In this document: piece after piece, positions 22,152 through 40,628 of the stretch | Layout: each line of letters begins with the position of its first letter | How positions within the stretch are numbered: the first letter of the stretch is position 1 | From: an uncultured Clostridia bacterium | GTDB lineage: Bacteria > Bacillota > Clostridia > TANB77 > CAG-465 | Reading direction: 5' to 3' | Length of the DNA stretch: 64,000 bases | Assembly (NCBI GenBank): GCA_947628005.1 | Contig: CANQYI010000003.1 | Span: forward strand, 134,077-198,076 | Notes under the pieces: model-generated | Databases searched by the model: none | Told to the model about the DNA's origin: nothing | Seen by the model: only the letters and a program-made list of their open reading frames with translations | Position numbers and translations under genes: made by a program

Positions 22152-22176
22152 AGGGAGGCATTATACGCCTCCCTCT

Positions 22177-23337
22177 TTATTTTCCTTTAACATAAGATGT
22201 AGTTTCATTATATGTACCAAATTTAATTAAATAATTTGTACATCCTATAGGTAAAGTAGTTGCTATTTTATTACTAGAATTTTTTGTTTTTACATATTCT
22301 GAAGAACTAACCTTATCTACTAAAATAACATAAGTTTTATTATTATATTTTACTGAGCTATATGTTCCTGTTCCAACAATGCTTACATCAACATCAGGAG
22401 ATGTTCCATGGCTTGGAATATCAAAATTTTGCATATCAACATCATAATCAATTACAACCCATTCCATATCAGTTTCAGGATCTTTATAATTATAATTGCT
22501 ATTATTATTTGCATAATCCTTTACTATATTTGCTGCTTCTTCTCCTCTTACAATATTAGTAACCTTTACTTTTACATTTTGATATTCATGTATGTTAGGA
22601 TTATATTTTGAAGCAACGCACCATTCATTGATATCGGCAGGACTATCTTTAGTATTTCCCTTTTTATTTGATAAATTGCTAGATTCTTCTGATTCATTTA
22701 TAAATTCAAAGCTATTAAATATTTTATCGCCTACACTTTCATCAAAATTTTCTTCCTTTGCACTGTAAGTAAGTACATATTCTGTAATATCTTTTAAAGT
22801 TGCACACTGATAAATACCTACGCCTGAATAACTGTAATAGTCCTTAAATGCTTTCTGCATTCCCATATATACATTATCTTTATCTATTTTTATATCTTCA
22901 TCTGATAAATTATAACTCTTCTTTAATGAATTAATACTTGCATTTATATAGCTGTCAAAATCTTTAATTCCAATTGTATCTCCTACTACTATATTTACTC
23001 CTGTTCCAGTATTTGGATTATAAAATAATATTGTTTTATAACCATCTTCTTCAGTTTCCTCAGTCTTACTAAACTCTTTTGGGTATTTAAATTTTACTCC
23101 TAATTCAGTATTTTCATAGGTTTTATAATCACTATAATCTTGTGTATTTTTATCAGTTTCATTATTTGAATAATCGTAAAAATCATTAGTGATTGAATCA
23201 TTCATATCTGAAATAATATTTTTTGATGTTACAAGAGCCGTTGTAACAAAAATTGTTCCCCATTCTAGAGCCAATACTAAAAATGCACACACAGCAATTA
23301 TAATTGCACCCTTAATAGATACACTTCTATTTTTCAT
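22177..23337 (-). CDS. hypothetical membrane-anchored or secreted protein (N/Y/D-rich)
   Basis: Start at MKNRSVSIKGAIIIAVCAFLV (TM/signal anchor) 7 nt after GGAGG. Remainder unrecognised. The longer track ORF start lies upstream of the RBS. Confidence 0.5.
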   Translation of the reverse strand: MKNRSVSIKGAIIIAVCAFLVLALEWGTIFVTTALVTSKNIISDMNDSITNDFYDYSNNETDKNTQDYSDYKTYENTELGVKFKYPKEFSKTEETEEDGYKTILFYNPNTGTGVNIVVGDTIGIKDFDSYINASINSLKKSYNLSDEDIKIDKDNVYMGMQKAFKDYYSYSGVGIYQCATLKDITEYVLTYSAKEENFDESVGDKIFNSFEFINESEESSNLSNKKGNTKDSPADINEWCVASKYNPNIHEYQNVKVKVTNIVRGEEAANIVKDYANNNSNYNYKDPETDMEWVVIDYDVDMQNFDIPSHGTSPDVDVSIVGTGTYSSVKYNNKTYVILVDKVSSSEYVKTKNSSNKIATTLPIGCTNYLIKFGTYNETTSYVKGK

Positions 23338-23444
23338 TGATATACCTCCACAATTAATACAATTAGAGTATATCAAATAAATAGTAAAAAGTAAATATAG
23401 AATAATAAAAACATAAAAAAGGAACTAATTCCTTAGTTCCTTTA

Positions 23445-24926: not shown

Positions 24927-25182
24927 TTTTTACCTCCAAGTTTAAATTCTTACTACAAATATATTATATAAAAAAAAATATATGCATTTTTTTTTGAAAA
25001 AAGGAACATTTTTATAATTTAAGCATATAAACATTATGTATTAACTTTTACATATTAACATTTGACATTTTTTAACAATTTTTGTTGACTTTTTTTAAAA
25101 TAAAAGGTATACTAATATATGCTATATGCAAAATATACTTAGTGTATGTTTTAAAAATATTTATAAGGAGATGGAAATTTTT

Positions 25183-26655
25183 ATGAAAAAAACTAAAATT
25201 GTTTGTACAATTGGTCCAGCCAGTGAAGCACCAGAAATATTAGAACAATTAATAAAATCTGGAATGAATGTTATGAGACTTAATTTTTCTCATGGTGATC
25301 ATGAAGAACATTTAGCTAAAGTAAAGACTTTAAGAGCTCTAAATGAAAAATTAGGTACTAATGTTGGATTTATGCTTGATACAAAAGGACCTGAAATAAG
25401 AACTGGTTCTTTCGGTACTGACCAAAATATAAAATTAGATTTCACAAAAGGAGATAAAATAACTTTAACAACTAAAGAAGTTGAAGGAACAAAAGACCTT
25501 TTGTCTATATCTTATAAAGGTTTACCACACGATGTTGAAGTTGGTGGACATATATTAATTGATGACGGATTAGTTGACCTTTTAATTGATGAAATAAACG
25601 GAACTGAAATAAATTGTACTTTCCAAAATTCTGCTACTTTAAAAGGTAGACGTGGTGTAAATGTTCCAGGAGCTAAATTAAAATTAAGTGCAATGACAGA
25701 AAAAGATAAATCAGATTTAATATTTGCTTGTCAAAATGATTTTGATTTTATTGCTGCTTCATTTATTAGAAAACCTCAAGATGTTATAGATATGAGAAAT
25801 TTCTTAAATGAAAATGGCGGTGAAAGAATAAAGATTATCTCTAAGATAGAAAATCAAGAAGGATTAGATAATTTTGACGAAATTCTAAAAGTTACTGATG
25901 GAATAATGGTAGCACGTGGTGATTTAGGTGTTGAAATACCAATAGAACAATTACCTTCTGTTCAAAAAATGATGATAAGAAAGACTGTTGCTGCTGGTAA
26001 ACCTGTTATAACTGCAACTCAAATGTTAGAATCTATGCAAAAGAATCCTAGACCTACAAGAGCTGAAGTTTCTGATGTTGCTAATGCCGTATATGACGGA
26101 ACTAGTGCAGTTATGCTTTCAGGAGAATCTGCTCAAGGTGATTATCCTATTGAAGCTGTTAAAGTAATGAATTCTGTTGTTACTAATGCAGAAGAACACA
26201 TAGATTATTGGAGAAGATTTAAAAAGAAAAATTTAGAGCAATTAACTATTAACTCTGCTCCTATTGTACTTGATGATTCATATGAATTTAAGAAACAATC
26301 TAACTTTGCTGTATGTTGTTCTGCTATGTTCTCTGATGCAGATGCAATTATTGCAGTATCAGAACATGCAATAACACCATCAATGCTTTCTAGCTTTAAA
26401 CCTGCTTGTCCTATATATGTTATTACTGCAAATCATACAACATATAGACAAATGTCAGTAGAAAATGGAGTTAGTGCTGTATATATTCCTGATGAATATA
26501 ATTTTGAAAAAATACTTTCTAAAGGAATTGAACAATTAAAGGAAAAAGGACTATTATTAGATGGAGACACTGTTGTATTAAGTGGTGGTTTCCCTAACAA
26601 AAATAAATCTAACTTCTTAGCAAATGAAGCTACAGGAACAATATTAAAGATTTAA
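25183..26655 (+). CDS. pyk: pyruvate kinase
   Basis: MKKTKIVCTIGPAS, MNVMRLNFSHG and MVARGDLGVEIP signature blocks. Start at the ATG at 25183 rather than the track start. Upstream TTGACT-17-TATACT promoter. Confidence 0.9.
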   Translation: MKKTKIVCTIGPASEAPEILEQLIKSGMNVMRLNFSHGDHEEHLAKVKTLRALNEKLGTNVGFMLDTKGPEIRTGSFGTDQNIKLDFTKGDKITLTTKEVEGTKDLLSISYKGLPHDVEVGGHILIDDGLVDLLIDEINGTEINCTFQNSATLKGRRGVNVPGAKLKLSAMTEKDKSDLIFACQNDFDFIAASFIRKPQDVIDMRNFLNENGGERIKIISKIENQEGLDNFDEILKVTDGIMVARGDLGVEIPIEQLPSVQKMMIRKTVAAGKPVITATQMLESMQKNPRPTRAEVSDVANAVYDGTSAVMLSGESAQGDYPIEAVKVMNSVVTNAEEHIDYWRRFKKKNLEQLTINSAPIVLDDSYEFKKQSNFAVCCSAMFSDADAIIAVSEHAITPSMLSSFKPACPIYVITANHTTYRQMSVENGVSAVYIPDEYNFEKILSKGIEQLKEKGLLLDGDTVVLSGGFPNKNKSNFLANEATGTILKI

Positions 26656-26662
26656 ATAAATT

Positions 26663-26710
26663 AGAATGCTTAAATAAAATTTAGGCATTCTATATTTCTT
26701 TTTTGGTTTT
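26663..26710 (+). terminator. intrinsic terminator after pyk
   Basis: agaatgcttaaa...tttaggcattct hairpin then a T-rich run. Confidence 0.55.
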
Positions 26711-26795
26711 TTTACTATTTTGCTTGATTATTTAAACTAAATATGTTAAAATAAATGGGTAATTAATTATTTTCTATAAAAAGGAGGGTTATGTT

Positions 26796-26984
26796 ATGGC
26801 AAAATGTGATATATGTGAAAAAGAAGTTGTATTCTCTCAACAAGTAAGTCACTCACACAGAAGAACTGCTAGAACTTATAAACCAAATGTTCAAACTGTA
26901 AAAGCTAATATAAATGGAAGTACAAAAAAAATCAATGTTTGTACTAGATGTTTAAAAAGTGGAAAAGTTGAAAGAGCTATGTAA
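26796..26984 (+). CDS. rpmB: 50S ribosomal protein L28
   Basis: MAKCDICEK...SHSHRRT...ARALKSGKVER pattern of Firmicutes L28. AAAGGAGGG RBS. Hairpin terminator just downstream. Confidence 0.85.
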   Translation: MAKCDICEKEVVFSQQVSHSHRRTARTYKPNVQTVKANINGSTKKINVCTRCLKSGKVERAM

Positions 26985-27110
26985 AAACTGATGAACTATA
27001 TGTTCACCAGTTTTTTTAATATATCTATACTTTAAATATTGTTTTAAGTATCATTCTCATAAACTTTCCAGGTTTATATACAACTATTTTCATAACTGTT
27101 CCCCCTTTAT

Positions 27111-27263
27111 TTAGCAAAATAGCCAAACTAAGCCTAGTATAATTACTGCTATTGCAACTATTGCTATCCAACACCAAAAAGGAAGTATTATACTAAGTCC
27201 AATTCCTACACCAAGCGCTAATAAAAATAATCCCATTGTCTTTCTAAATGCTCCTAAAAACAT
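27111..27263 (-). CDS. small hydrophobic membrane protein (50 aa)
   Basis: Not in the ORF track. ATG after GGGGAGA RBS. MFLGAFRKTMGLFLLALGVGIGLSIILPFWCWIAIVAIAVIILGLVWLFC gives two predicted TM helices. Confidence 0.4.
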   Translation of the reverse strand: MFLGAFRKTMGLFLLALGVGIGLSIILPFWCWIAIVAIAVIILGLVWLFC

Positions 27264-27356
27264 TTTTTATCTCCCCTTCCTTTTTGACAAATGTATTAAA
27301 ATATTGTAAAATATCTAATATATACTATGACAGCAATAAAGATATGGTGATAAAAA

Positions 27357-28010
27357 ATGAAAAAATCTGAAGAATATAAAAATTCAACCAAAAAAGATTC
27401 TGAACAAATTATCAAAGCACTTATAGATTTCTATCCTGAAGCTACTTGTAGCCTAAATTATAAAGATCCATTTGAATTATTAGTAGCTCTTATTCTTGCT
27501 GCGCAATGTACAGACGAAAGAGTAAATAAAATAATTCCTATTTTATTTGATAAATATAAAACTGTAAATGATATTGCAAATGCATCATACGAAGATATAG
27601 AAAAGATTATTAAGCCTTGTGGCTTTTATAAAAACAAAGCTAAAAACATAGTTGACACTGCAAATATTATTGTTGACAAGTTTAATTCAAATGTACCTGA
27701 TACAATGGAAGAATTATGTACCTTAAAGGGTATTGGTAGAAAATCTAGTAATATAATTTTACAAGAATGTTTTTCTAAAATTGAAGGAATTGCAGTTGAT
27801 ACGCACGTCACTAGAATATCTAGAAAAATTGGGCTTTCAAATGGTAAAAGTCAACAAGAAATAGAAAAAGATTTAATGAGCATGTTTGATAAAAAATATT
27901 GGAACAAAATAAACCACGTTTTAGTATATCACGGAAGAGCTATATGTATTGCTAATAGGCCAAAATGTAGTCAATGTCCTATTTCTAAATTCTGTAAAAA
28001 AAATAAATAA
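27357..28010 (+). CDS. nth: endonuclease III
   Basis: HhH-GPD fold (LKGIGRKSSNIIL, catalytic K and D) and C-terminal 4Fe-4S cluster loop C-X6-C-X2-C-X5-C (CSQCPISKFC). Upstream TTGACA-17-TAAAAT. Confidence 0.9.
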   Translation: MKKSEEYKNSTKKDSEQIIKALIDFYPEATCSLNYKDPFELLVALILAAQCTDERVNKIIPILFDKYKTVNDIANASYEDIEKIIKPCGFYKNKAKNIVDTANIIVDKFNSNVPDTMEELCTLKGIGRKSSNIILQECFSKIEGIAVDTHVTRISRKIGLSNGKSQQEIEKDLMSMFDKKYWNKINHVLVYHGRAICIANRPKCSQCPISKFCKKNK

Positions 28011-28025
28011 AGCACATCTTGTGCT

Positions 28026-29825
28026 TTATTTATTTTCATTATTTGTCTTTTTGGTTTTAGCTATTGGTATTGTAATATAAAAAGTTGTGCCTTCGCCTGT
28101 TTGAGAATCAAAAGTTATATCACCATTAAAATTACCTTTAATAACAGAGTATGCTAAATATAATCCTAGACCTGTTCCTGCTATTCCCTTAGTTGTTAAA
28201 ATAGACTTAAATATATATGGCTTTACACTCTCGTCAAGTCCATCGCCAAAGTCCATTATTTTAATTAATGCCTGTCTCTTTGGTGCTTTTGTAATAATAA
28301 GGCTTATTTTTCCACCCTCTTTATCTTTATATGCTTGAGCAGAATTTACTACCATATTAGTTAATACTTGTCCTAATTTTGCTGGATCTCCTTCAACATA
28401 TAAATCATCTTCTACAGTTATTTCTAATTTAGCATTATATTTATTTACCTCATGCAAAGTTAAACATTTAACATCATCTAATACATCGCTAATTTTAAAT
28501 TTAACATTTATATTACTGCCTAAGTTTCTTATTTGATTTCTCATACTGTTTACAATGTTTATTATTTTATCAGCGCAATTGTCCATTCTATTTAATATTT
28601 CTTTTTCTTCATCACTAGAATCTTTTATGCTTAAATCTTTTAGCATTACTATTCCAGTTTTGATTGCAGATATTGGAGTATTTATATCATGTGCTACACC
28701 ACCAGCTACCTCACCTATTGATACTAGCTGTCCTTGTTTAACTATTATTTCCTGTTGCTCTTTTAGTTCTTTTAAGTTCTTCTTGTGCTCTGTTACATTC
28801 TTTATAAGTAATAAAACTCCTATACATTCTTGGGCTCTGTTTTTAGTCTTTATACTATTTATATCTACTTCATAATATTCTTCTATCTCTAAATTTTCAT
28901 CTATAAGGTCTAAATTATATTTTGAACTTTCATTAGCCACTATAGTTTCCAATATTTTAAGTGACAATTTGTTTAATTCTATATTACTGCTATTAGATAA
29001 AATATCTAATAGATTATCTTTATCATCTACATTTATCTTATCTAAAAATGAATTTTTGAACATCTTATTATAGTCTACAATTGTACCGTCATTTGATATT
29101 ACAACGAACGCATCTGTCATCGTATCAATAACTGCTTTTAAAGCTATTGGTGTTATTTTTAAAGAATTATATTTAAATATTGATATTGATACCAATATTG
29201 AAAATGATATAAATAATATTGGAATCAAATATACTGTTATAGATTGTATTTGGAAAATAGCTATTACATTTCCAGATATTAATGCAATTATTCCAAATAG
29301 AAGTAGTAATGTTGACTTAGAAAATAGCCCTGAACGTTTAATAACTCCTGATATCATTATTACTATAGAAATAGCAAACATTGTATAGGTATAAAATGCA
29401 TATAAGTAATATATTGGTCCATACACTATTTGATCTAAATTTATAGAGTATTTTATAAAAAATAAATTGTGAATATCATTTGTAAATATAATTATTAAAA
29501 ATAAAATTGGTATAATGTATAATATTTTTAATTTATTTATATATTTTTCCTCTTTTACATAACTCAATGCTACAAATAATAAGCATATTGGAGTAAAAGT
29601 TGCTCCGATGTATGTTATATATTCAAAATATATGTCCGGGACACTGGTATTTATAAATAAAATTTGAAAAATAAGAGCTAATGTGTGAACTATCAAAGTT
29701 ATATTTAGCCACGTAAAATATTTATATACTTTTGTTTTTTTATCTGATTTATTAAGAAAAAATGTCATTAATACAATTGCAAATAAAGAAATTAAAAGTA
29801 TAATAAGTCTTACATTAATCACCAT
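28026..29825 (-). CDS. orphan membrane sensor histidine kinase (about 6-TM N-domain, PAS-like segment, HisKA, HATPase_c)
   Basis: H-box AHDINTPISAIK, G-boxes (DFGDGL, GTGLGLYLAYSV). No cognate response regulator adjacent. ATG at 29825 after AAGGAGAG. Confidence 0.8.
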   Translation of the reverse strand: MVINVRLIILLISLFAIVLMTFFLNKSDKKTKVYKYFTWLNITLIVHTLALIFQILFINTSVPDIYFEYITYIGATFTPICLLFVALSYVKEEKYINKLKILYIIPILFLIIIFTNDIHNLFFIKYSINLDQIVYGPIYYLYAFYTYTMFAISIVIMISGVIKRSGLFSKSTLLLLFGIIALISGNVIAIFQIQSITVYLIPILFISFSILVSISIFKYNSLKITPIALKAVIDTMTDAFVVISNDGTIVDYNKMFKNSFLDKINVDDKDNLLDILSNSSNIELNKLSLKILETIVANESSKYNLDLIDENLEIEEYYEVDINSIKTKNRAQECIGVLLLIKNVTEHKKNLKELKEQQEIIVKQGQLVSIGEVAGGVAHDINTPISAIKTGIVMLKDLSIKDSSDEEKEILNRMDNCADKIINIVNSMRNQIRNLGSNINVKFKISDVLDDVKCLTLHEVNKYNAKLEITVEDDLYVEGDPAKLGQVLTNMVVNSAQAYKDKEGGKISLIITKAPKRQALIKIMDFGDGLDESVKPYIFKSILTTKGIAGTGLGLYLAYSVIKGNFNGDITFDSQTGEGTTFYITIPIAKTKKTNNENK

Positions 29826-29904
29826 TATCTCTCCTTTCACTATTAAAATTTAACTAATCTTTATATATATTTTATTCTAAAAGACATAATATTTCAACTT
29901 TTTT

Positions 29905-30609
29905 TTAAATAATGTCAAAATATCTTATATTATCTTTTAAGTACTTCTTACATTCATTATAGTCTGGAATGTATTTTTCTACTAGATTCCAAAACTTTTG
30001 ACTATGGTTAGGTTCTTTAAAGTGGCATAACTCATGTACAATTATATAGTCAGCTACATGAGATGGCAACATTGCAAGTTTTAAATTAAAATTTAAGCTT
30101 CTCTTTGATTTTACGGCACTTCCCCAAACTGTTTTTTGACATTTAATTGAGAGGCTGTTATATCTTTCATTCATAATATTACACCAATAAATAAGTCTTT
30201 TTTCAAGCAATATTTTGGTATTTTCTTTGAGGAAACTTTTTAAATTGCTTATAAAATAAGAGTAGCATTCACTATCGTTTACAGAGTTTGGAATATAAAA
30301 TAAAATTTCATCATCATTTAAATCTAACATAAATTGACTGAAATTCCAATATACATAATTTAATTTTCTCAAAGTTCCAAATATAAGTATTTCTTCTTTA
30401 TTATCTACTTGAATTTTTCTATAAATTTCATAAATCTTTTCCTTATTTTCAAGTAAAAATTCATTTGCCCTATTTTTAGATATTCTTTCAGGCTTAGATA
30501 ATCTTATATAATTTTTATTAACAGATATACTAATTCTTTTATAATTTCTACTAGAAACAATTTTTATTGGAAGTTTTACATCTTTATAGTCGAAATATTC
30601 ATGATTCAT
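29905..30609 (-). CDS. DUF45/YgjP-like (M48-type) metal-dependent hydrolase
   Basis: HELCHF HExxH motif near the C-terminus and overall about 230-aa architecture typical of DUF45/SprT-like proteins. Confidence 0.65.
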   Translation of the reverse strand: MNHEYFDYKDVKLPIKIVSSRNYKRISISVNKNYIRLSKPERISKNRANEFLLENKEKIYEIYRKIQVDNKEEILIFGTLRKLNYVYWNFSQFMLDLNDDEILFYIPNSVNDSECYSYFISNLKSFLKENTKILLEKRLIYWCNIMNERYNSLSIKCQKTVWGSAVKSKRSLNFNLKLAMLPSHVADYIIVHELCHFKEPNHSQKFWNLVEKYIPDYNECKKYLKDNIRYFDII

Positions 30610-30727
30610 ATTGTACCTCTAACGTTTTTAGATTATCATATTTACTTGCTTTTTTCAATAGCTTGAGAGGCAATTATTTTAACTAATACTAAGTACTGAA
30701 AAAGTATAAATATTTATAAAAAAAGTG

Positions 30728-30756
30728 TTGACAAAAATATTATTTTCGGTTATAAT
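30728..30756 (+). promoter_or_regulatory. sigma-A promoter of the tRNA operon (TTGACA-17-TATAAT)
   Basis: Consensus hexamers with 17-nt spacer, 20 nt upstream of tRNA-Val. Confidence 0.6.
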
Positions 30757-30775
30757 TGTATATGTCAACGAAAGT

Positions 30776-30851
30776 GGGCGCTTAGCTCAGTTGGGAGAGC
30801 ATCTGCCTTACAAGCAGGGGGTCACAGGTTCGAGCCCTGTAGTGCCCACCA
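30776..30851 (+). tRNA. tRNA-Val (anticodon TAC), CCA encoded
   Basis: Cloverleaf folds by hand: acceptor gggcgct/agtgccc, anticodon loop cTTACAa, T-loop GGTTCGAGC. Confidence 0.85.
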
Positions 30852-30871
30852 CTTTTTTTATTATTGTTTTT

Positions 30872-30948
30872 GGCCTGGTAGTTCAGTTGGTTAGAACGCT
30901 AGCCTGTCACGCTAGAGGTCGTGGGTTCGAGCCCCATTCAGGTCGCCA
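30872..30948 (+). tRNA. tRNA-Asp (anticodon GTC), CCA encoded
   Basis: Acceptor ggcctgg/tcaggtc, anticodon loop cTGTCAc, T-loop GGTTCGAGC. Confidence 0.85.
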
Positions 30949-30961
30949 TTTTTTTATAAGT

Positions 30962-31037
<76 letters not shown>

Positions 31038-31047
31038 TTATTTTTTT

Positions 31048-31123
31048 GCGGGAGTAGCTCAGTTGATAGAGCGCCGCCTTGCCAAGGCGGAGGTCGCGGG
31101 TTTGAGCCCCGTCTCCCGCTCCA
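31048..31123 (+). tRNA. tRNA-Gly (anticodon GCC), CCA encoded
   Basis: Acceptor gcgggag/ctcccgc, anticodon loop tTGCCAa, T-loop GGTTTGAGC. Confidence 0.85.
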
Positions 31124-31173
31124 TTTGTTTTATAAGTTCTATTTATTTTATTTATGAATATACTTTATTAAAT

Positions 31174-31247
31174 GGCGCCATAGCCAAGTGGTAAGGCACG
31201 GCTCTGCAAAAGCCTGATCATCAGTTCAAATCTGATTGGCGCCTCCA
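31174..31247 (+). tRNA. tRNA-Cys (anticodon GCA), CCA encoded
   Basis: Acceptor ggcgcca/tggcgcc, anticodon loop cTGCAAa, T-loop AGTTCAAATCT. Confidence 0.85.
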
Positions 31248-31251
31248 AACG

Positions 31252-31306
31252 ACAAAAAATGACAAATTTCTAACATTAAGTTAAAATTTTGTCATTTTTT
31301 TATTCT
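31252..31306. terminator. bidirectional terminator-like hairpin after the tRNA cluster (left copy of a duplicated hairpin)
   Basis: acaaaaaatgacaaa ... tttgtcattttttt. Near-identical arms recur at 35601-35645. Confidence 0.5.
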
Positions 31307-31398
31307 CTTAGAGCTATCTGCATTTTACATTAAAACTCTCTTTTTGTTTTTCATTGAAATATATTGTAATTTTTTGTATTTTTATATAATCTTCCAGT

Positions 31399-31423
31399 AG
31401 TTACATTAAAATTACATTAAAAA
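31399..31423. repeat. 25-bp direct repeat AGTTACATTAAAATTACATTAAAAA, left copy
   Basis: Perfect identity with 32798-32822. Internal tandem TTACATTAAA x2. Additional single TTACATTAAA copies at about 31328 and 31435. Confidence 0.8.
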
Positions 31424-31498
31424 AACGCTTTTATTACATTAAAGATTGAAAAAACATTCAATTTTGGGTTTACTCATTTGACTTATACATATTATAAT

Positions 31499-32128
31499 TT
31501 ATCTTTCCTCTCCATACTCATATTCTTCATATTTATTAATTGCTCTTTTTAGACCTGCTTCTTTTGCTATTCTCAAATAGTGTTCTGATAATCTATAATT
31601 TCTATCTGTTCCTTTCCCATTATAGTAAAAGTTCGCACCCAAATCATATATGGCTGCAATGTGTCCTTTATTTGCACATTCTTTAATTATTTCAAATGCT
31701 TTTTTATAATCTTTTTCTATTCCACCTAGTCCAAAATAATAATATGCACCTGTAACAAATTGAGCATAAATTCTTTCAATTTCACCTATGTCTTGTGAAT
31801 TTATTAAACTTATTATTTGTGGATAAGCTTGTTGTAACAATTTGTTTCCCTTTTCTTCATCTATTGGTAGTGCATTCCCTAAACCTAATTCATAAGAAAT
31901 TCCTAAAGAATATTTGCATAATGGATAATCTAAATGATAACCTTTTTTATAGTATTCCAACGCAATATCATAATCTTGCTCAGCTCCATTTTCTTCTAAG
32001 TCATAACTTCGACCTAAAATATAATAAGAAAACCCATCTTGTTCTTTTTTCAATTTATCTAAATCAAATTTAATTATATCCATATATTTTCTCCTTAAAT
32101 TGCTATATTTTATAATAATGTTATCCAA
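31499..32128 (-). CDS. Sel1-like (TPR-family) repeat protein
   Basis: Repeated A-x-x-Y-Y-x-x-G / GLG / NKGHIAAIYDLGANFYYNGKG Sel1 repeat signatures. Start overlaps the 3' end of the upstream toxin gene by 19 nt. Confidence 0.65.
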   Translation of the reverse strand: MDNIIIKYSNLRRKYMDIIKFDLDKLKKEQDGFSYYILGRSYDLEENGAEQDYDIALEYYKKGYHLDYPLCKYSLGISYELGLGNALPIDEEKGNKLLQQAYPQIISLINSQDIGEIERIYAQFVTGAYYYFGLGGIEKDYKKAFEIIKECANKGHIAAIYDLGANFYYNGKGTDRNYRLSEHYLRIAKEAGLKRAINKYEEYEYGEER

Positions 32129-32424
32129 TTTCTTCTTCCATACATAACTCTTACAATTTGTATATTTTCATCATTTATTCTATAAAAAACAATATAATTA
32201 TCAACTACTAGTTTCCTAATTTTAAATCTTTTGATTATATCATCATCTATAACAGAATACATTTCTGGATTATCTTTTAAACTATCTATTTCATTTTTTA
32301 TGTTTGTAATTAATTTTTGAGCAGTATTAGGTTCTTGTAAATTATATTTAATGTATCGTTTTATATCTATTAAATCTTGTTTTGCTTCCATTGAATATTC
32401 TATATTATATTTTTTCAAAGGCAA
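32110..32424 (-). CDS. type II toxin, RelE/ParE family
   Basis: About 100-aa basic protein with RelE/ParE-like C-terminus (IVFYRINDENIQIVRVMYGRRN), immediately downstream of a Phd/YefM antitoxin gene. Confidence 0.7.
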   Translation of the reverse strand: MPLKKYNIEYSMEAKQDLIDIKRYIKYNLQEPNTAQKLITNIKNEIDSLKDNPEMYSVIDDDIIKRFKIRKLVVDNYIVFYRINDENIQIVRVMYGRRNWITLL

Positions 32425-32438
32425 ATCCTCTTTCTTTT

Positions 32439-32693
32439 TTAAATTTTATCTAACTCGTCAAAAACTTCTTTTGATGAATATTTTTTGCCATTTTCTAATG
32501 ACTTAATTCCTTTTTCTAATTCTTTATATAAAGCATACTTATCTGTTAAAAGTTCGTATAACTCAATACTCATTACTGCTAAATCTCCTGCACCATTTTT
32601 AGTAATATATACTGGACTATTTGTTTGATGGCAAATTGTAGAAATTTCATTATAATTATTTCTTAAATCAGAACTTGGTCTAATAATTGGCAT
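32439..32693 (-). CDS. type II antitoxin, Phd/YefM family
   Basis: MPIIRPSSDLRNNYNEIS...PVYITKNG...AVMSIELYE is a classic Phd/YefM N-terminus. ATG at 32693 7 nt after GGAGGTG. TTGACT-17-TAAAAT promoter at about 32725-32760 (minus). Confidence 0.75.
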   Translation of the reverse strand: MPIIRPSSDLRNNYNEISTICHQTNSPVYITKNGAGDLAVMSIELYELLTDKYALYKELEKGIKSLENGKKYSSKEVFDELDKI

Positions 32694-32797
32694 ACTAAAC
32701 ACCTCCATAAATATTATATACATATTTTATCAAAATATTGATATATAGTCAATGCTTTTCAATTAATTTTATTTTTAAAATTTACAAACGCAATCCT

Positions 32798-32822
32798 AGT
32801 TACATTAAAATTACATTAAAAA
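32798..32822. repeat. 25-bp direct repeat AGTTACATTAAAATTACATTAAAAA, right copy
   Basis: Identical to 31399-31423. Lies about 105 nt upstream of the antitoxin start. Confidence 0.8.
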
Positions 32823-33196
32823 TTGCTTTCTGTATCTTAAAAGTGTTGATATTACTATAACTTCAAAAATATTAAACCGGAGTACGCCTCCAAAGTATTT
32901 TTTAAATTTCACAGATTTTTAAGAATTCTGTGAAATTTTCATATCTGTCCAAAGCTTTTTATATCAAGCATTTCAATTTTTTATAATTTTCCCAAACTAC
33001 ATTAACATTTTTACAAATATTAACAAATAATGATTTTTATATATAAAAATACTCCTCCAGTTAGAATACTTGGTTTTGATTTTAATATTTTTTATGAAAT
33101 ATATAATATAATTTATTTGTATAAATATATTGGCTTTTACAAACGTTCGCTTTATGATGTAAGCAACTTTTACACAAGGAAGGAATTAAGTTATTT

Positions 33197-34159
33197 ATGA
33201 ATAATCTCACTAATATTGAGCCAGTAAATAAAGAATTAAATTTAGTAAAATATGAAACAGTTGATATTAAGAATTTAATTTATTGCATTAGAGGAAAACA
33301 AGTTATGCTAGATAGCGACGTAGCAATGTTATATCATTATCAAACTAAAAGAATAAATGAAACAGTTATTAGAAATAAGGAAAGATTTCCAGAAAATTTT
33401 TGTTTTCAGTTAACAGAAGATGAGTTTTCATGTTTAAGGTCGCAATTTGCGACTTCAAACGATAAAGAAAATAACTGGTCGCAATTTGCGACCAGTTCAA
33501 AAAATGATAATAGCAAGCATAGAGGAAAAAAATATTTGCCATATGTCTTTACAGAGCAAGGTATAGCAATGCTTTCTGGTCTATTAAAAAATGAAATTGC
33601 AGTTCAAGTAAGTATAAACATAATGAATGCATTTGTTGAAATGAGAAAATTTATTTCCATAAATGGACAAGTTTTTGAAAGATTAACAAATGTTGAATAT
33701 AGATTATTAGAACATGATAATAAATTCAATCAAATATTTAATGAATTACAAAAGAATAAAGAACAAGAATTTAAACAAAAAATATTTTTTAAGGGACAAA
33801 TATGGGATAGCTATGAACTAATAATTGATATTATAAAAACAGCACAAAGTAAAATAGTAATAATAGATAATTATATAGACGATACTATTCTTAAAATGAT
33901 TCAAAAGAAAAATAAAAATGTTGAAGTAATTATTTTAACTTCACAAAATTGTAATATAACAAAGCTAGATATTAAGAAGTTTAATGAACAATATGGAGTA
34001 TTAAAAATAGAACTAACAGATAAATTTCATGATAGATTTATTATTATAGATAATAAAGAGCTTTATCATTGTGGAGCATCACTCAAAGATTTGGGTAAAA
34101 AATGTTTTGGAATTAACAAAATAGAAGAAATAGAATTTATAGAAAATATAATTAAATAA
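33197..34159 (+). CDS. ORF6N/ORF6C-domain protein (phage antirepressor-like DNA-binding protein)
   Basis: N-terminus IYCIRGKQVMLDSDVAMLYHYQTKRINETVIRNKERFPENFCFQLTEDEF...LRSQFATS...KYLPYVFTEQGIAMLSGLLKN matches the ORF6N domain. The C-terminal about 170 aa resembles the ORF6C partner domain. The SQFATS segment is internally duplicated. Confidence 0.7.
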   Translation: MNNLTNIEPVNKELNLVKYETVDIKNLIYCIRGKQVMLDSDVAMLYHYQTKRINETVIRNKERFPENFCFQLTEDEFSCLRSQFATSNDKENNWSQFATSSKNDNSKHRGKKYLPYVFTEQGIAMLSGLLKNEIAVQVSINIMNAFVEMRKFISINGQVFERLTNVEYRLLEHDNKFNQIFNELQKNKEQEFKQKIFFKGQIWDSYELIIDIIKTAQSKIVIIDNYIDDTILKMIQKKNKNVEVIILTSQNCNITKLDIKKFNEQYGVLKIELTDKFHDRFIIIDNKELYHCGASLKDLGKKCFGINKIEEIEFIENIIK

Positions 34160-34359
34160 GTGGCTTAAAATACGTTGAAAAAATCAACAATATATGCTAT
34201 AATAATATCGTTATCTGTATCATGAACTACTATGATTATAGTAACTATTTAGTAATGATTGAAACTATATTTTTTGTTTCTATTAAAACTAAACAAAACC
34301 TTAATACAAGCATACTGCCATAGTGCTTGTAAAAAAATAATTTTATGGAGGTGTTAATT

Positions 34360-35106
34360 ATGGCAGAAAGAGTATCAAAAGAAGTTCCAATTGCGGAACG
34401 GTTAATCGAGTTTGGAAAGGATGATTTCAATGAGAATTTTTCACTTTCTGAAATTTCTGAAAGTTTAATTACTCAGAAAATACTTGAAGAGTTTGCAGAA
34501 AATGCTTTAGTTCTTATTGACGGTACAGACATTCTGCAGTACGCAAATGAATATCCTATTGTTGTATATCAGTGCAACGAAAATATTTGCTATGAAAGTA
34601 TAACACCTGAACCTCGTCTCAACAGCTTTGTACTGAGCATTGCGGTATCAACAGGTGTGAGTGGCAAAAGATTTTCGGTTAGCTCTGGAAAAATGAAAGC
34701 TGACATTAACGATTTCGATACCATTGCTTACTATGAAGATTCAGTTGGCATCAAGCATAAGATTATTCAGTATGACATTTGCAAGTTCTTGCTGAAAAAG
34801 CCTAAGCTTGTTGTCTCTGAGGAAGGTGTTCTTGTTTTCTTTACTGAAGACCAAATTTTAGCAACAATTGACTGTCAGCAGTATGTATGGGTTCGTTGGG
34901 ACGACATCATTAAAAATTGCACAAGCATTGAAAACATTACCGCATATCACGAGTATTGTGAAGTAACTCTTGTTGAGGGCGAAGATGTTTATGATAATTT
35001 AGGTAAAATTTTTAAAAAAGCCCCCAGACACGTTTTAAATCTGAACTTCAATTTGAAGGTAGCAGACCATAACATGATAAATCCTGAATTTACGAAAAAA
35101 TCGTAA
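34360..35106 (+). CDS. hypothetical protein (249 aa), GC-atypical (about 37-38% GC) cargo gene
   Basis: ATG 6 nt after GGAGGTG. Own TTGAAA-17-TATAAT promoter at 34175-34203 with a roughly 150-nt leader. No motif recognised. Codon usage differs from the flanks. Confidence 0.5.
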   Translation: MAERVSKEVPIAERLIEFGKDDFNENFSLSEISESLITQKILEEFAENALVLIDGTDILQYANEYPIVVYQCNENICYESITPEPRLNSFVLSIAVSTGVSGKRFSVSSGKMKADINDFDTIAYYEDSVGIKHKIIQYDICKFLLKKPKLVVSEEGVLVFFTEDQILATIDCQQYVWVRWDDIIKNCTSIENITAYHEYCEVTLVEGEDVYDNLGKIFKKAPRHVLNLNFNLKVADHNMINPEFTKKS

Positions 35107-35179
35107 TCAAAAAAGCTCTAAGATACTACAAACTCCTCAATCACAATATGTGGTTGGGGATGTTTGCATTTAATTATTT

Positions 35180-35464
35180 TTATATTAGTGTATCAGTTTG
35201 TCTAAGTTTACCATCTTTTGCTCTCATTTTTAACTGTACGATATTTTCGTACAGTTGACTACATTTTGTAATCAACTCAGATCCTTCTTTTTTCAATCTT
35301 AACTTTAATACAGGCCAATATTTTCTTGGTTTATTACTATCTGTTAATGCTGATATAACATCAACAACACTAAAATAATAATCTTCTTTTGTAGAATCCC
35401 AAATACTCCTAATTTCCTTACCTTCAAATAAATTTGAAATTGTATCTAACTTATTGCTTTCCAA
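35180..35464 (-). CDS. Bro-N/DinD-like domain protein (short, possibly a remnant)
   Basis: LFEGKEIRSIWDSTKEDYYFSVVDVISALTDSNKPRKYW matches the Bro-N / KilA-N-like pattern (F.G..IR.i..dge.wF...DV..aL). Best start is the TTG at 35464, 7 nt after AGGAGG. Confidence 0.5.
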   Translation of the reverse strand: MESNKLDTISNLFEGKEIRSIWDSTKEDYYFSVVDVISALTDSNKPRKYWPVLKLRLKKEGSELITKCSQLYENIVQLKMRAKDGKLRQTDTLI

Positions 35465-35597
35465 TATACATCCTCCTTTATTAAAAATATAAATCACTAA
35501 TAACTGTAGATATTATGCAAAATATCTGTTCCGTTTTCAATATTTTCATATAACTTTTTAATAATTTATTTTTTTATTAGGAAATAGTGCACACTCA

Positions 35598-35645
35598 CAA
35601 ACAAAAAATGACAAAACTACAACTCAGTGTGTTTTGTCATTTTTT
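35598..35645. terminator. terminator hairpin of the GGDEF-EAL gene (right copy of the duplicated hairpin)
   Basis: acaaaaaatgacaaaac-N13-gttttgtcatttttt. Arms nearly identical to those of 31252-31306. Confidence 0.55.
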
Positions 35646-37079
35646 CTATTTTATATTTTTTACTTTACTATTAAATTTTTCATAATTTTCTAATAATTCT
35701 TCTAATCTATCAATGTCAACTGGATCTGCTATTAATCTTCCTTGTATTTTTGAAATATTACTTTTTAAAATTTCTCTTAATTCAACGTCATTTTCAATAT
35801 TTGTAACTACTACGTGATATCTTAAATCTCTTGCAAGTTTTATTATATCTTTTAATAAATTCTTTTCATTTTCATTATTTTCTGATATATAATTTGCTGA
35901 TACTCTAAACTCATCTATTGGTAAACCTCTAAATAGTGTTAGATTTTCATATCTTAATTCTATATTATTTATTCCTATATCAGCACCGCAAGTTTTTAAT
36001 CTCTCTGTTAAAACTTTAAAATCATCTATTTCTTTTACATTAATATTATTAGTAAGTTGTAAACAAATTTCTCCACTATTTATTTGATATTCATCTAATA
36101 TACTGCACAATTTATCTACAAAATCTTTTCTTTTTGCATGCTTATTTGATATATTCATTGCAAAAGATACATTATTATAACCCTTAAATTTCATTTCATC
36201 TAGTTTTTTGCAAATCGTATCTAATACCAATTGATCTAACTTTATTATAAGTCCCATCTCTTCTGCTTGCTTTATAAAGTATTCTGATTGAATAATTCCT
36301 AGTACAGGGTGTTTCCAGTATAAAAGTGCCTCAAATGATATATTAGTTTTGTCTAAGACATTTATTCTTGGCTGTAATAAAACGCCAAATTCATTATTAT
36401 CATAAGCCTGTTTTAAGTCTTTTTCCATTTTAGTTTTATTTTCAAGTTTTGCCTTTAAAACTTTGTTATGAAAATAATAATTATTTTTTCCATGTTCTTT
36501 TATATAGTACATTGCGTCATCTGCATAATTAATTAAATCTTTCTTATTATTGGCATCTTCTGGATAAATTGCTATTCCAAGGCTATACTCAAGATTAATA
36601 CTATTATTTTCAATTATAAGGGGAATTTCAAATTCTTTTTTCAAGTCATTTAAAATACTAGTTATATCTTCAGTAGTTTTTATATTTTCCATTACAACTG
36701 CAAACTCGTCTCCACCCAATCTATATGATTTTGCATTTTGTGGAAGACTTCTTTCAAATATATTAGATAGCTCAATCAAAACTTTATCGCCTGCATCATG
36801 TCCCATTGTATCATTAATTTGTTTAAATCCATCTAAATCCATAAAACATACAGCAAACTTTTCCTTCTTAGATATAAGTTTATCTAATACATCTAAAAAT
36901 AAATGTCTATTTCCTCTTCCTGTAAGTGGATCAGTATATGCTTGTCTTTTTGTTAATTTATTTTCCTTTAGAGTACCTGATACATAAATTCTATATATTA
37001 ACATACCTAAAGCAACTAAAACTACGCCTTTAATAATACCATATATTATTTCTATATTCACTATTATCCCCCTTATCAT
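35646..37079 (-). CDS. membrane-anchored GGDEF-EAL protein (diguanylate cyclase/phosphodiesterase)
   Basis: N-terminal TM, GGDEF motif (RLGGDEFAVV) and EAL motif (FEALLYWKHP) with conserved downstream blocks. Start may be the ATG at 37079 or the GTG 18 nt downstream that follows GGGGGA. Confidence 0.85.
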   Translation of the reverse strand: MIRGIIVNIEIIYGIIKGVVLVALGMLIYRIYVSGTLKENKLTKRQAYTDPLTGRGNRHLFLDVLDKLISKKEKFAVCFMDLDGFKQINDTMGHDAGDKVLIELSNIFERSLPQNAKSYRLGGDEFAVVMENIKTTEDITSILNDLKKEFEIPLIIENNSINLEYSLGIAIYPEDANNKKDLINYADDAMYYIKEHGKNNYYFHNKVLKAKLENKTKMEKDLKQAYDNNEFGVLLQPRINVLDKTNISFEALLYWKHPVLGIIQSEYFIKQAEEMGLIIKLDQLVLDTICKKLDEMKFKGYNNVSFAMNISNKHAKRKDFVDKLCSILDEYQINSGEICLQLTNNINVKEIDDFKVLTERLKTCGADIGINNIELRYENLTLFRGLPIDEFRVSANYISENNENEKNLLKDIIKLARDLRYHVVVTNIENDVELREILKSNISKIQGRLIADPVDIDRLEELLENYEKFNSKVKNIK

Positions 37080-37082
37080 TTG

Positions 37083-39491
37083 TTATTTTACTACAATATT
37101 GATGATTTTTGATTTAATATTTATTACTTTTACAATATTTTTTCCTCTTGTGTAATTTTCAAGTTTTGGCTCTGCCAAAGCAATTTTTTCTACTTCTTGT
37201 TGTTCTAAATCTTTAGAAACATTTATTTTATACCTTAATACTCCATTTACCTGAACTGGAATTTCCACCATATCAGCAACTGTCTTTGTTTCATCAAATT
37301 GAGGCCATTTTGACTCAAATATATGACCTTCAAGTCCTAAATCTTCCCAAAGTTGCTCTGTTACATGTGGTGCAACTGGATTTAATAATATTAATAATGG
37401 TTTTACATAATTTACAGAAACTTTTTCTTCTTTATAAAGTAAATTTACATATGACATCATACATGCAATAGCAGTATTAAATTTCATATCTGTATAATCA
37501 GATGTTACTTTTTTTATCATAGAATGTAAATTAGATTCTAACTCTTTATTTTCAATATATTCATTAGTCGTAAAATCTTTTATTCTTGCAACTCTATCTA
37601 AGAATTTTTTAGCTCCCTTTACTCCATTATCAGACCAAGCAGCACTAAGAGAAAAATCTCCTATAAACATTACATATGTTCTTAGCGTATCTGCTCCATA
37701 TTCTTTTACAATTTCATCTGGATTTACTACATTACCTTTAGATTTGCTCATCTTATTTCCATCTGGTCCAAGTATAAGTCCATGAGTAGTTCTCTTCTTA
37801 TATGGCTCTTTAGTTGGAACAACTCCTATATCATATAAAAATCTATGCCAAAATCTAGAATAAATCAAATGCCTTGTAACGTGTTCCATTCCTCCATTAT
37901 ATTGATCTACTGGTAACCAATACTTTAATTTATCCATACTTGCTAATTCTTTGTCATTGAAAGGATCTGCGTATCTTAAGAAATACCATGATGACCCTGC
38001 CCACTGAGGCATTGTATCTGTTTCTCTTACTGCGTGTCCTGAACATTTAGGACATTTAGTATTAACCCATTCATCAACATTAACAAGTGGTGATTTTCCA
38101 TCTTCACCTGGAATGAAGTTTTCTATTTTAGGAAGTGTTAATGGTAATTCTTCTTCCGGTATAGGAACTAATCCACACTTTTCACATTTTACTATTGGAA
38201 GTGGTTCACCCCAATATCTTTGTCTAGCAAAAGCCCAATCTTTCATATGGTACTGTGATTTTCTCACTCCTATTTTATTTTCTTCCATATATTGAGTCAT
38301 TTTTTCTTTTGCTTCTTTTACATTTAAACCATTTAAGAAATCAGAATTAATAGCTATACCTTCATCTGATGTATATGCCTTATCTTCAGGAAGTTCTCCA
38401 TTAACTGGTTTTACAACAGGTATAATATCTAGATTAAATTTTTTTGCAAATTCATAATCTCTATCATCATGTGCAGGAACTGCCATAATTGCCCCTGTTC
38501 CATAATTTACCATAACGTAATCTGTTACAAGTAATGGTATCAATTTATTAGTAATTGGATTAATTACTTCAATTCCTTCTACTTTTACACCTGTTTTTTC
38601 TTTAACAATCTGAGTTCTTTCAAATTCAGATTTTTTCATTGCTTCTTTTCTATACTCTTGTATTTTATCAAAGTTCTTTATTTTATCTTTTAGTTTATCT
38701 AACAATTCGTGTTCTGGAGCTATAGCCATATATGTAACTCCATATATTGTGTCAGGTCTAGTTGTATAAATTTCTAGTATTTCATCTGTGTCTTTTATTT
38801 TAAATTTTACTTGTGCACCTGTAGACTTGCCTATCCAGTTAATTTGTTCTGTCTTTACTCTATCTGGAAAATCAAGATTATTAAGTTCTTCTAATAGTTT
38901 ATCTGCGTAATCTGTAATTTTTAACATCCAAACTTCTTTTTCCATCTGAACAATTTGACTATCGCATCTATCACATACTCCACCTTGAGATTCTTCATTT
39001 GCAAGAACAACTCTACATTTTGGGCAATAATTTACATATGTTTTATCTTTGTAAGCTAGTCCCTTTTTAAATAATTGTAAAAAAATCCATTGTGTCCATT
39101 TAACGTAATCATCTTTTGTAGTATCTATTACTCTGTCCCAATCAAAAGAGAAACCAACTGATTTTAACTGATTTGTAAAATTCTTTATATTATCATCAGT
39201 TACTTTTCTTGGATGAATTCCTGTTTTCATAGCATAATTTTCTGTTGGAAGACCAAATGCATCAAATCCAATAGGATATAATACATTATAGCCCTGTAAT
39301 CTTTTCATTCTTGCTATTACATCCATACCAGTATAAGGTCTTATATGTCCTACATGAAGTCCTGCACCAGATGGATATGGAAATTCAATTAATGCATAAA
39401 ATTTTTCTTTAGAAAAATCATCAACTGCACTAAAACATTTGCTATCTTCCCAAACTTTTTGCCATTTTTTATCTATATTTTTATCGTACAT
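37083..39491 (-). CDS. leuS: leucine--tRNA ligase
   Basis: HIGH motif (GAGLHVGHIRPYT), CP1 editing domain, KMSKS (KMSKSKGN) and LeuRS C-terminal domain. 802 aa. Confidence 0.95.
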   Translation of the reverse strand: MYDKNIDKKWQKVWEDSKCFSAVDDFSKEKFYALIEFPYPSGAGLHVGHIRPYTGMDVIARMKRLQGYNVLYPIGFDAFGLPTENYAMKTGIHPRKVTDDNIKNFTNQLKSVGFSFDWDRVIDTTKDDYVKWTQWIFLQLFKKGLAYKDKTYVNYCPKCRVVLANEESQGGVCDRCDSQIVQMEKEVWMLKITDYADKLLEELNNLDFPDRVKTEQINWIGKSTGAQVKFKIKDTDEILEIYTTRPDTIYGVTYMAIAPEHELLDKLKDKIKNFDKIQEYRKEAMKKSEFERTQIVKEKTGVKVEGIEVINPITNKLIPLLVTDYVMVNYGTGAIMAVPAHDDRDYEFAKKFNLDIIPVVKPVNGELPEDKAYTSDEGIAINSDFLNGLNVKEAKEKMTQYMEENKIGVRKSQYHMKDWAFARQRYWGEPLPIVKCEKCGLVPIPEEELPLTLPKIENFIPGEDGKSPLVNVDEWVNTKCPKCSGHAVRETDTMPQWAGSSWYFLRYADPFNDKELASMDKLKYWLPVDQYNGGMEHVTRHLIYSRFWHRFLYDIGVVPTKEPYKKRTTHGLILGPDGNKMSKSKGNVVNPDEIVKEYGADTLRTYVMFIGDFSLSAAWSDNGVKGAKKFLDRVARIKDFTTNEYIENKELESNLHSMIKKVTSDYTDMKFNTAIACMMSYVNLLYKEEKVSVNYVKPLLILLNPVAPHVTEQLWEDLGLEGHIFESKWPQFDETKTVADMVEIPVQVNGVLRYKINVSKDLEQQEVEKIALAEPKLENYTRGKNIVKVINIKSKIINIVVK

Positions 39492-39503
39492 AAAAGCCTC
39501 CTC

Positions 39504-40628
39504 TTAACTATATTTAATATATTGTGATTCAAAAAAATTGTCTGTCATACCCGAAATAAAATCTACAATTTTTACTCCATCTACGGTATTCTTGTTATAA
39601 TTTTCATTCATTGAATTTAAAAACATTCCATAAATATCATTACTTGTATCATTATTTTTCAAGGCTTCTTCATAGACATTAAATAAATGATAAAATTTAT
39701 TTTTATACTGTTCTAATCGTTCATCAGTACATGCTTTATCATATATGTATTCATAATTAAACTTTTTCAGTTTTACCACTGCATCATTAACTTTTTTTGA
39801 CATCTTTATATATGGTTTATCAAAACTTTCATTTATTATATCTAAAATTATAGAATTCATTATTTCATTATTTTTTGTACCCAAAGTAGTTCTAATATCT
39901 TGTGGAATATCTTCTAATTTTAGCATTTTCAGTCTTATTGCATCGTCAATATCTTTACCTATGTATCCAATTATGTCAGAAATTCTAACAATACATCCTT
40001 CTAGAGTCATAGGTCTTAATTTTTTTATATTTTCAGAATTTTTATAACAATCATTATATTCTTTTAAAAATTTGTCATAATCTTTTTCTTCGGGATAGTA
40101 TTTATCGCTTAACATTTCTCCATTATGACACAATATTCCATCTAAAACTTGTAGAGTTAAATTTAAGCCATTACCATTCTTTTCTATATTAGTAAATGTT
40201 CTAACACTTTGAACATTATGTGCAAATGTTATACCTAATTTTTCTTTGCATATATCAGATAATATTCTTTCACCAACATGTCCGTATGGAACATGTCCAA
40301 TATCATGACCTAGTGCTATTGCCTCACATAAATCTTCATTTAAATTTAACGCTCTAGCTATAGTTCTTGCAGCTCTACTCACAAATTGTACATGTGTCAT
40401 TCTAGTAGATATGTTATCATTTTCTGCACACGTATATACTTGTGTTTTATTACTATATCTAGTATATGGTAACGTATGAATTATTTTATCTATATCTCTT
40501 TCAAAATCTGTCCTAATATCTAAATTTTCTTTTTTTAATCTAATTGCATCTTTAGATAGGCAAGCATACTTACTTAAGTTTTGCTCACTTTTTTCCATAT
40601 TAGATTTTATTAACTCAAACTTTTCCAA
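39504..40628 (-). CDS. dGTP triphosphohydrolase-like HD-domain protein
   Basis: HD motif ALGHDIGHVPYGHVGE and overall dGTPase-family layout. 374 aa. Confidence 0.75.
   Translation of the reverse strand: MEKFELIKSNMEKSEQNLSKYACLSKDAIRLKKENLDIRTDFERDIDKIIHTLPYTRYSNKTQVYTCAENDNISTRMTHVQFVSRAARTIARALNLNEDLCEAIALGHDIGHVPYGHVGERILSDICKEKLGITFAHNVQSVRTFTNIEKNGNGLNLTLQVLDGILCHNGEMLSDKYYPEEKDYDKFLKEYNDCYKNSENIKKLRPMTLEGCIVRISDIIGYIGKDIDDAIRLKMLKLEDIPQDIRTTLGTKNNEIMNSIILDIINESFDKPYIKMSKKVNDAVVKLKKFNYEYIYDKACTDERLEQYKNKFYHLFNVYEEALKNNDTSNDIYGMFLNSMNENYNKNTVDGVKIVDFISGMTDNFFESQYIKYS

Follow-up and report, generated by a model that had tools for sequence, protein, structure and literature searches.

The 64,000-nt window analysed here (contig CANQYI010000003.1 of an uncultured Clostridia bacterium, positions 134,077 to 198,076) contains a lineage-specific accessory islet of about 4.4 kb, which sits between two conserved convergent units, a tRNA operon ending with tRNA-Cys on the left and the LeuRS and GGDEF-EAL genes on the right. 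The islet encodes a Phd/YefM-ParE-Sel1 operon, an ORF6N-domain protein, an orphan protein and a Bro-N fragment, and is bounded by two similar hairpins, designated H1 (tRNA-Cys side) and H2 (GGDEF-EAL side). With a probability of about 0.65, we read it as a small, mosaic and strain-variable accessory islet in a recombination-prone slot, which would have been assembled in several steps and not as one element. We see in it a variable hot spot of the ordinary kind and no recognisable mobile element or prophage remnant; the decayed integrative element or prophage proposed in the initial annotation is at odds with at least three independently bounded modules, one of them strain-variable, and with fruitless searches for an integrase, an attP site and a phage match.

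Strain and lineage variation of the slot

None of the six islet proteins was found at this locus in 20 or more related genomes, and the accessory character first assigned to the stretch next to the tRNA cluster has held. The islet also varies within the species. Two contigs (L053 and L054), obtained from two independent samples and assemblers, carry approx. 165 nt of unrelated sequence in place of positions 32797-35582, next to a GGDEF-EAL gene that is 100% identical. Both follow the window through H2 and 18 nt further, and rejoin it at the right copy of a 26-nt repeat and the Phd promoter. The strain-variable module stops 18 nt short of H2, and H2 together with the adjoining 18 nt is the sole islet-side sequence common to both strain alleles. 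Several other contigs break at strain-variable junctions. Homology of the 165 nt with the sequence of the longer allele was considered and found not convincing.

The sister species L121 (LeuRS 84% and GGDEF-EAL 88% identical) keeps the gene order of the window on either flank of the slot, namely FAD, DAGK, HD, LeuRS, GGDEF-EAL, slot, inverted tRNA cluster, YgjP, histidine kinase (HK), HhH-GPD and L28. Its slot is occupied by a single unrelated gene for a DUF5052 protein (208 aa) and two hairpins, unlike one another and unlike H1 and H2; identical gene content in relatives, which had been named as an observation that would weaken the islet interpretation, was not what we saw. Three further sisters (L115, L117 and L118) keep the C-terminus of GGDEF-EAL (...NIK*), but their sequences part from the window immediately 3' of the stop codon, and none of the three has H2. 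Across the sister lineages, GGDEF-EAL is 81-88% identical. Distant relatives (LeuRS 70-82% identical) lack the islet proteins and have a tRNA promoter and a tRNA cluster of the same orientation directly after the GGDEF-EAL stop codon.

The opposite border can be followed in two other lineages. L077 has an H1 orthologue 3' of tRNA-Cys with the same spacing, and next to it a gene for an ISL3-type transposase (flank at L077 394-1569). In L119 a diverged H1 homologue, whose stem is kept through one compensatory change of T-A to C-G, is located 1.1 kb from tRNA-Cys, behind a PNP_UDP_1 gene with a weak match to a PADLOC effector; a RhuM-type PDC-S05 gene follows the hairpin (flank at L119 175-2494). 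Judging from these comparisons, the tRNA-Cys flank is a hot spot that recurs across lineages, with different accessory genes on either side of the hairpin, H1 is the older feature of this flank and H2 is a species-specific copy.

The slot is also a synteny breakpoint, because the blocks on its two sides are rearranged between lineages: the histidine kinase/HhH-GPD/pyruvate kinase block and the LeuRS block are placed differently in L036 and in L119/L115 than at positions 20000-40000 of the window, and in the L115/L119 lineage the histidine kinase block lies more than 30 kb from the LeuRS block on one contig. The duplicated tRNA clusters of relatives were tried as island borders and rejected; the DNA between them includes housekeeping genes, prs among others, and the clusters are two ordinary operons.

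The two hairpins

The 15-nt arm ACAAAAAATGACAAA has two exact copies in the 64 kb (at 31252 and 35601), where shuffled sequences lead one to expect 0.00. The complementary arms, identical over 14 nt between H1 and H2 (31288-31302 and 35633-35647), are likewise absent elsewhere in the 64 kb, so that the pair of hairpins with identical arms and different loops was correctly recognised from the outset. H1 consists of a 21-nt arm pair, 90% complementary, around a loop of 5 nt, and H2 of a 15-17-bp stem with a 13-nt loop. The folding energy of H1 is -14.3 kcal/mol (z -4.2 against shuffles); for H2 the two strands give -17.4 and -17.0 kcal/mol, with z-scores of -3.6 and -4.3, respectively.

Both hairpins stand at the 3' ends of convergent units and have the design of bidirectional intrinsic terminators; they are terminator-like on either strand because each is preceded by a run of A (A6) and followed by a run of T (T6-7). 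We counted 57 long hairpins in the window, in which the A-run/stem/T-run arrangement is frequent. The TGACAAA stem occurs in none of the 55 others, which speaks against the arm being a common terminator motif of the window; a genome-wide motif had been named beforehand as adverse to the islet. The arm pattern has 52 matches in a metagenome set of 241 million records, always single, never paired and mostly in unrelated organisms, and 0 matches in viral contigs. The hairpin was rejected as a dispersed or viral att site on these counts. We conclude from the sequences that H1 and H2 are related by descent and not alike by chance, because their arms are exact and unique in the window, while the pattern is very rare in metagenomes and was not found in viral contigs. 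Duplication of the target hairpin, as initially suggested, is plausible, because H1 is ancestral and H2 is a second, species-specific copy.

Toxin-antitoxin-Sel1 operon

The leftmost module is a type II toxin-antitoxin (TA) system, with adjacent antitoxin and toxin genes whose families both score above the curated cut-offs; models TIGR01552 and TIGR02385 also match the pair. A promoter-like site precedes the Phd gene (32724-32752). A direct repeat of 26 nt, TAGTTACATTAAAATTACATTAAAAA, stands without mismatch on either side of the operon; its two copies are kept in every same-species contig that spans them, and it has no match in viral contigs. The unit TTACATTAAAA, of which the repeat is composed, occurs five times in the window, always within the islet.

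Units of this kind and their variants (31325-31444, 32800-32821 and 32999-33010) are clustered on both sides of the TA operon and just 5' of the ORF6N promoter, and could be operator or recombination sites. The ParE gene shows a cluster of strain polymorphisms at 32260-32313, where 5-7 single-nucleotide differences fall within 54 nt. The same contigs encode fully identical (100%) YgjP and histidine-kinase proteins in the flanks.

ORF6N gene and Bro-N fragment

The ORF6N protein matches the PADLOC profile PDLC04869 (PDC-S05) with an E-value of 1.2e-114, its residues 15-319 being aligned to positions 8-297 of 306. The initial annotation of an ORF6N/ORF6C protein was half right: the ORF6N domain is present, but no ORF6C domain was found in residues 161-320 with Pfam, even at E<=10. 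We also noted a weak match to the NCBIfam model of the VPA1262 N-terminal domain and no solved structural relatives. The gene is a candidate single-gene phage defence gene on the strength of its profile match. It includes a duplicated, near-palindromic 16-mer (33438-33493), GGTCGCAATTTGCGAC, which encodes SQFATS twice and was flagged as a coding-region hairpin by the terminator scan.

The 105-aa ORF on the opposite strand aligns, with 61% identity, to residues 9-81 of a Bro-N protein of 281 aa from Parabacteroides distasonis, a PDC-S13 member, in agreement with the Bro-N fragment first reported. Its gene is cut at residue ~102 of 281, and no remnant of the C-terminal two thirds is left. Matches of the islet to plasmids are confined to the ORF6N and Bro-N genes.

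Between the TA promoter and the ORF6N gene lies H3, a strong 15-bp palindrome (32904-32938; AAATTTCACAGATTT / AATTCTGTGAAATTT, 5-nt loop). H3 is probably not a terminator, because there is a T-run on neither side.

Orphan cassette

The unknown, GC-atypical gene of the initial annotation is part of a cassette with its own promoter-like and terminator-like sites. Its start is most likely at 34357, because this position agrees with the homologues. The product belongs to no family in four libraries; its AlphaFold model is confident (pLDDT 82), mostly beta, and without a match in PDB or BFVD. In strain L048 the gene is split into two ORFs.

The cassette recurs with 84-90% nucleotide identity in unrelated contexts, including its non-coding ends with the 170-nt upstream region and the terminator. 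Its ends are conserved in L109 (653-1644), L110 (5024-6015), L111 and L114 (250-1251). Elsewhere it is found with PemK-type and Abi genes, with a large unknown gene, or with tRNA-Gly and a prophage integrase; no recombinase is encoded in the cassette itself. In the window, the final codon and the stop of the ORF6N gene come from the left end of the cassette. The Bro-N gene would have been truncated by insertion of the cassette, because the right end of the latter is the point where Bro-N homology ends.

The heptamer TTAGTGT stands to the right of the cassette in the window and to its left in L114, a placement that might hint at a circular intermediate. If the cassette were circular, the predicted junction of the circle would read TTTTTATA-TTAGTGT-AAATAAGT.

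Origin of the islet

In the stepwise assembly that we favour, the Phd-ParE-Sel1 addiction operon, now bracketed by the 26-nt direct repeat, would have arrived in the first step. The second step would have brought two convergent genes, ORF6N/PDC-S05 and Bro-N/PDC-S13-like, each a candidate for anti-phage defence by a single gene, and in the third the 1.03-kb orphan cassette would have landed between them, removing two thirds of the Bro-N gene. H1 would represent the old terminator region of tRNA-Cys, and H2 a copy of H1 by descent, which may have come with the first insertion and would now terminate GGDEF-EAL. As bidirectional terminators, both hairpins would halt transcripts arriving from both directions and keep the islet separate from the flanking units.

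Several points count against this reading. Either allele, with or without the 2.8-kb segment, may be the ancestral one. A truly empty site, i.e., tRNA-Cys, a single hairpin and GGDEF-EAL, which the initial annotation had named as the confirming observation in related genomes, was found in no same-species or sister genome, L121 having the DUF5052 gene in its slot; because of this we can only infer the order and number of insertion events. The terminator role of both hairpins is a prediction; their stems are AT-rich, their loops are 5-13 nt long, and a standard terminator scan called neither of them. The count of H-type hairpins covers the 64-kb window only. Finally, PDC-S05 is a heterogeneous label: its phage-tested representative, which lowered plating of T7 and T5 ~1000-fold (10.1101/2024.09.26.614923), is of RhuM-type and not of ORF6N-type, and a pairwise comparison of the ORF6N-type protein with the RhuM-type protein of L119 revealed no similarity.

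Among the other explanations, a single integrative element or prophage could have inserted site-specifically into the terminator hairpin of the tRNA operon, leaving H1 and H2 as attL and attR, and then have lost its integrase and decayed. This account, which we consider unlikely, would fit two direct hairpin copies bounding lineage-specific DNA, an ancestral H1 with a new H2, and the presence of H2 and the 18 nt on its left in both strain alleles. Those 18 nt also align loosely with the 3' end of tRNA-Cys (p ~0.015-0.08), and this 3' end appears again as the 10-nt CGCCTCCAAA at 32885-32894 (alignment p ~0.02); however, the similarity is weak, other islet regions score equally, and the tRNA-Cys 3' fragment was set aside as a doubtful att scar. 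The mosaic content with its own internal boundaries is not expected of one element. One fixed att site is further disfavoured by the insertions of other lineages, of which one precedes the H1 homologue (the PNP gene of L119) and another follows it (the ISL3 gene of L077). No recombinase or transposase family was detected among the islet proteins or in precomputed Pfam lists for ~10 kb to the left and ~11 kb to the right, and tblastn with integrase and ISL3 transposase queries gave no match in the window, as the reported lack of an integrase had implied. The islet has no excisionase or phage gene and no attP-like partner, its DNA matched nothing in the phage collection, and neither three of its proteins nor the hairpin have relatives in viral contigs. 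A single site-specific integration that duplicated the hairpin may nonetheless apply to the origin of the first step.

H1 and H2 could also be independent terminators, similar by chance or convergence in a very AT-rich genome, and the islet borders would then be unrelated to them. In the window, terminators are commonly of the A-run/stem/T-run style, and same-arm hairpins exist in unrelated organisms, e.g., in a contig of ~34% GC with a nitrite-reductase-type operon, where a look-alike of 84% identity was dismissed as coincidental. We nevertheless hold this to be very improbable, given an exact 15-mer expected 0.00 times, a stem missing from all other hairpins of the window, a pattern seen only as rare metagenome singletons, and two copies exactly at both ends of lineage-specific DNA. 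Slightly less credit goes to a descent of H2 from the palindromic tRNA promoter that follows the GGDEF-EAL stop in more distant relatives, with H1 as a relic promoter, tRNA operons lost and no insertion at all. All 12 relatives examined do carry A-run-CTGTTGACAAAT...TATAAT...TTGTCAACAG right after this stop, and H1 reads ATGACA-17-TAAAAT-TTTGTCA and has ACATTA.GT.TA.AAT in common with the promoters of second clusters; but the closer sisters (GGDEF-EAL 81-88% identical) have nothing alike after the stop, H2 is without a -10 element, and the -10-like element of H1 is not conserved in L077. About as far-fetched, in our opinion, is a cassette-capture site of a new kind, at which promoter-bearing modules (the TA-Sel1 operon with its TTACATTAAAA repeats and the orphan cassette) would be inserted and exchanged next to the tRNA-Cys terminator hairpin and the hairpin copied in the process; some recombination activity, with its gene at another place in the genome, would be the agent, and the outcome would be integron-like with unrelated parts. 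Hardly any credence is left for a hairpin-bounded transposable or cassette system of the IS200/IS605, palindrome-associated transposable element (PATE) or integron-like array type. Two similar, directly oriented hairpins at the ends, a TA cassette as in chromosomal integrons, and TTAC-containing repeats would suit it; yet TnpA, TnpB and IntI are all missing, H2 abuts and overlaps the conserved stop codon and H1 is 4 nt from tRNA-Cys, which leaves no space for subterminal cleavage sites, the attC cores (R''/R', RYYYAAC/GTTRRRY) are absent from the hairpin ends, and the cassettes, which carry promoters of their own, do not all point the same way. Both the integron and the IS200/IS605 readings were rejected for want of enzymes and site features.

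Genomic setting

The source organism is a spore-forming member of the Clostridia with a very low GC content of 26.6% in the window, and SpoIVA is encoded nearby; its species has been seen in gut metagenomes only, and a search of species-representative genomes gave 82% identity for the nearest LeuRS. Rfam detected nothing but the five tRNAs of the operon. Coordinates of the islet and its flanks are collected in Table 1.

Table 1 Features of the islet and its flanks, with positions in the 64-kb window
Feature	Position	Strand	Remarks
tRNA-operon promoter	30725-30770	+	Perfect TTGACA-17-TATAAT (30728-30756) within inverted repeat GTGTTGACA...TGTCAAC; design shared within the clade
tRNA operon Val(tac)-Asp(gtc)-Phe(gaa)-Gly(gcc)-Cys(gca)	30776-31247	+	Conserved left flank
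Hairpin H1	31252-31302		Terminator-like, bidirectional; 4 nt 3' of tRNA-Cys; ancestral copy
26-nt direct repeat, left copy	31398-31423	+	Perfect; TAGTTACATTAAAATTACATTAAAAA, two tandem TTACATTAAAA units
Sel1-repeat protein	31499-32086	-	PF08238, E 5e-16; third gene of the toxin-antitoxin operon
ParE/RelE-family toxin	32110-32424	-	Pfam PF05016, 62.9 bits (cut-off 23)
Phd/YefM antitoxin	32439-32696	-	Pfam PF02604, 36.5 bits (cut-off 29.8)
26-nt direct repeat, right copy	32797-32822	+	Also left edge of the strain-variable segment
Strain-variable segment, ~2.8 kb (ORF6N gene, orphan, Bro-N fragment)	32797-35582		Present or absent among strains
Small GC hairpin, then palindrome H3	32877-32938		Hairpin holds CGCCTCCAAA (last 8 nt of tRNA-Cys + AA)
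ORF6N-domain protein, uncharacterised C-terminal domain	33197-34159	+	Full-length match to PADLOC PDC-S05
GC-atypical cassette, ~1.03 kb	34153-35186	+	Promoter-like site 34175-34203, orphan gene, terminator-like hairpin 35134-35160
Orphan gene, unknown protein, 249 aa	34357-35106	+	GC 35.4% vs 26.6% in the window
Bro-N fragment, 105-aa ORF	35180-35497	-	N-terminal third of a PDC-S13-type protein
Hairpin H2	35601-35647		H1 paralogue; outer pairs overlap the GGDEF-EAL stop codon; this species only
GGDEF-EAL gene	35646-37079	-	Conserved right flank; synteny with all relatives ends at its stop codon
LeuRS and GGDEF-EAL block	35646-39491	-	Convergent to the tRNA operon

The tRNA promoters of the clade lie inside a conserved inverted repeat composed of an A-run, CTG, TTGACA, ~17 nt, TATAAT and TTGTCAACAG, as exemplified by window positions 30725-30770, L121 8838-8895 and the first and second tRNA clusters of L006-L042. 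The -35 box is thus mirrored after the -10 box, and the repeat could act as an operator or as a combined terminator and promoter. Apart from these, tandem near-identical hairpins were observed at 58537-58614, where TCTATAGGTCAA, a 14-nt T-rich loop and TTGACTTATAGA are present in two copies, 40 nt apart.

Significance and comparison with known systems

Current concepts are left unchanged by these results, whose main value is a correction: the islet is no prophage remnant. The terminator region of the tRNA operon would act as a landing site at which addiction genes and candidates for anti-phage defence come in, are exchanged and become disrupted, even at the level of strains. By-products of the analysis are a PDC-S05 gene of the ORF6N type, an orphan cassette of 1 kb that travels widely, whose product has a confidently folded, beta-rich model without a known structural relative, and a three-gene Phd-ParE-Sel1 operon.

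Like tRNA-associated islands, the islet lies directly 3' of a tRNA gene, carries cargo absent from relatives and has direct repeats at its borders. It differs from them in its size of 4.4 kb, the lack of an integrase, a repeat that is a terminator hairpin and not a clear tRNA 3' end, its mosaic make-up, and the insertions on either side of the hairpin in neighbouring lineages. With chromosomal integron arrays it shares small modules, including a TA pair, and hairpin-forming repeats between them, whereas IntI, attI and an attC consensus are lacking, and the modules have their own promoters and both orientations.

The Phd/YefM-ParE pair itself is arranged as in other type II systems, with the antitoxin gene preceding the toxin gene in a two-gene operon and scores above the cut-off for both Pfam families, except that a Sel1-repeat gene is co-transcribed as the third gene and the perfect 26-nt repeat stands, in direct orientation, at both ends of the module. 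Compared with defence islands and variable hot spots, the islet is very small, its systems are candidates, none of them validated, and one gene is truncated and one an orphan. It resembles them, however, in its conserved flanks and in cargo that differs by lineage and strain, this cargo being a TA system and candidate anti-phage genes (PDC-S05 and PDC-S13-like), and a sister lineage carries another PDC-S05-type gene in the same tRNA-Cys flank.

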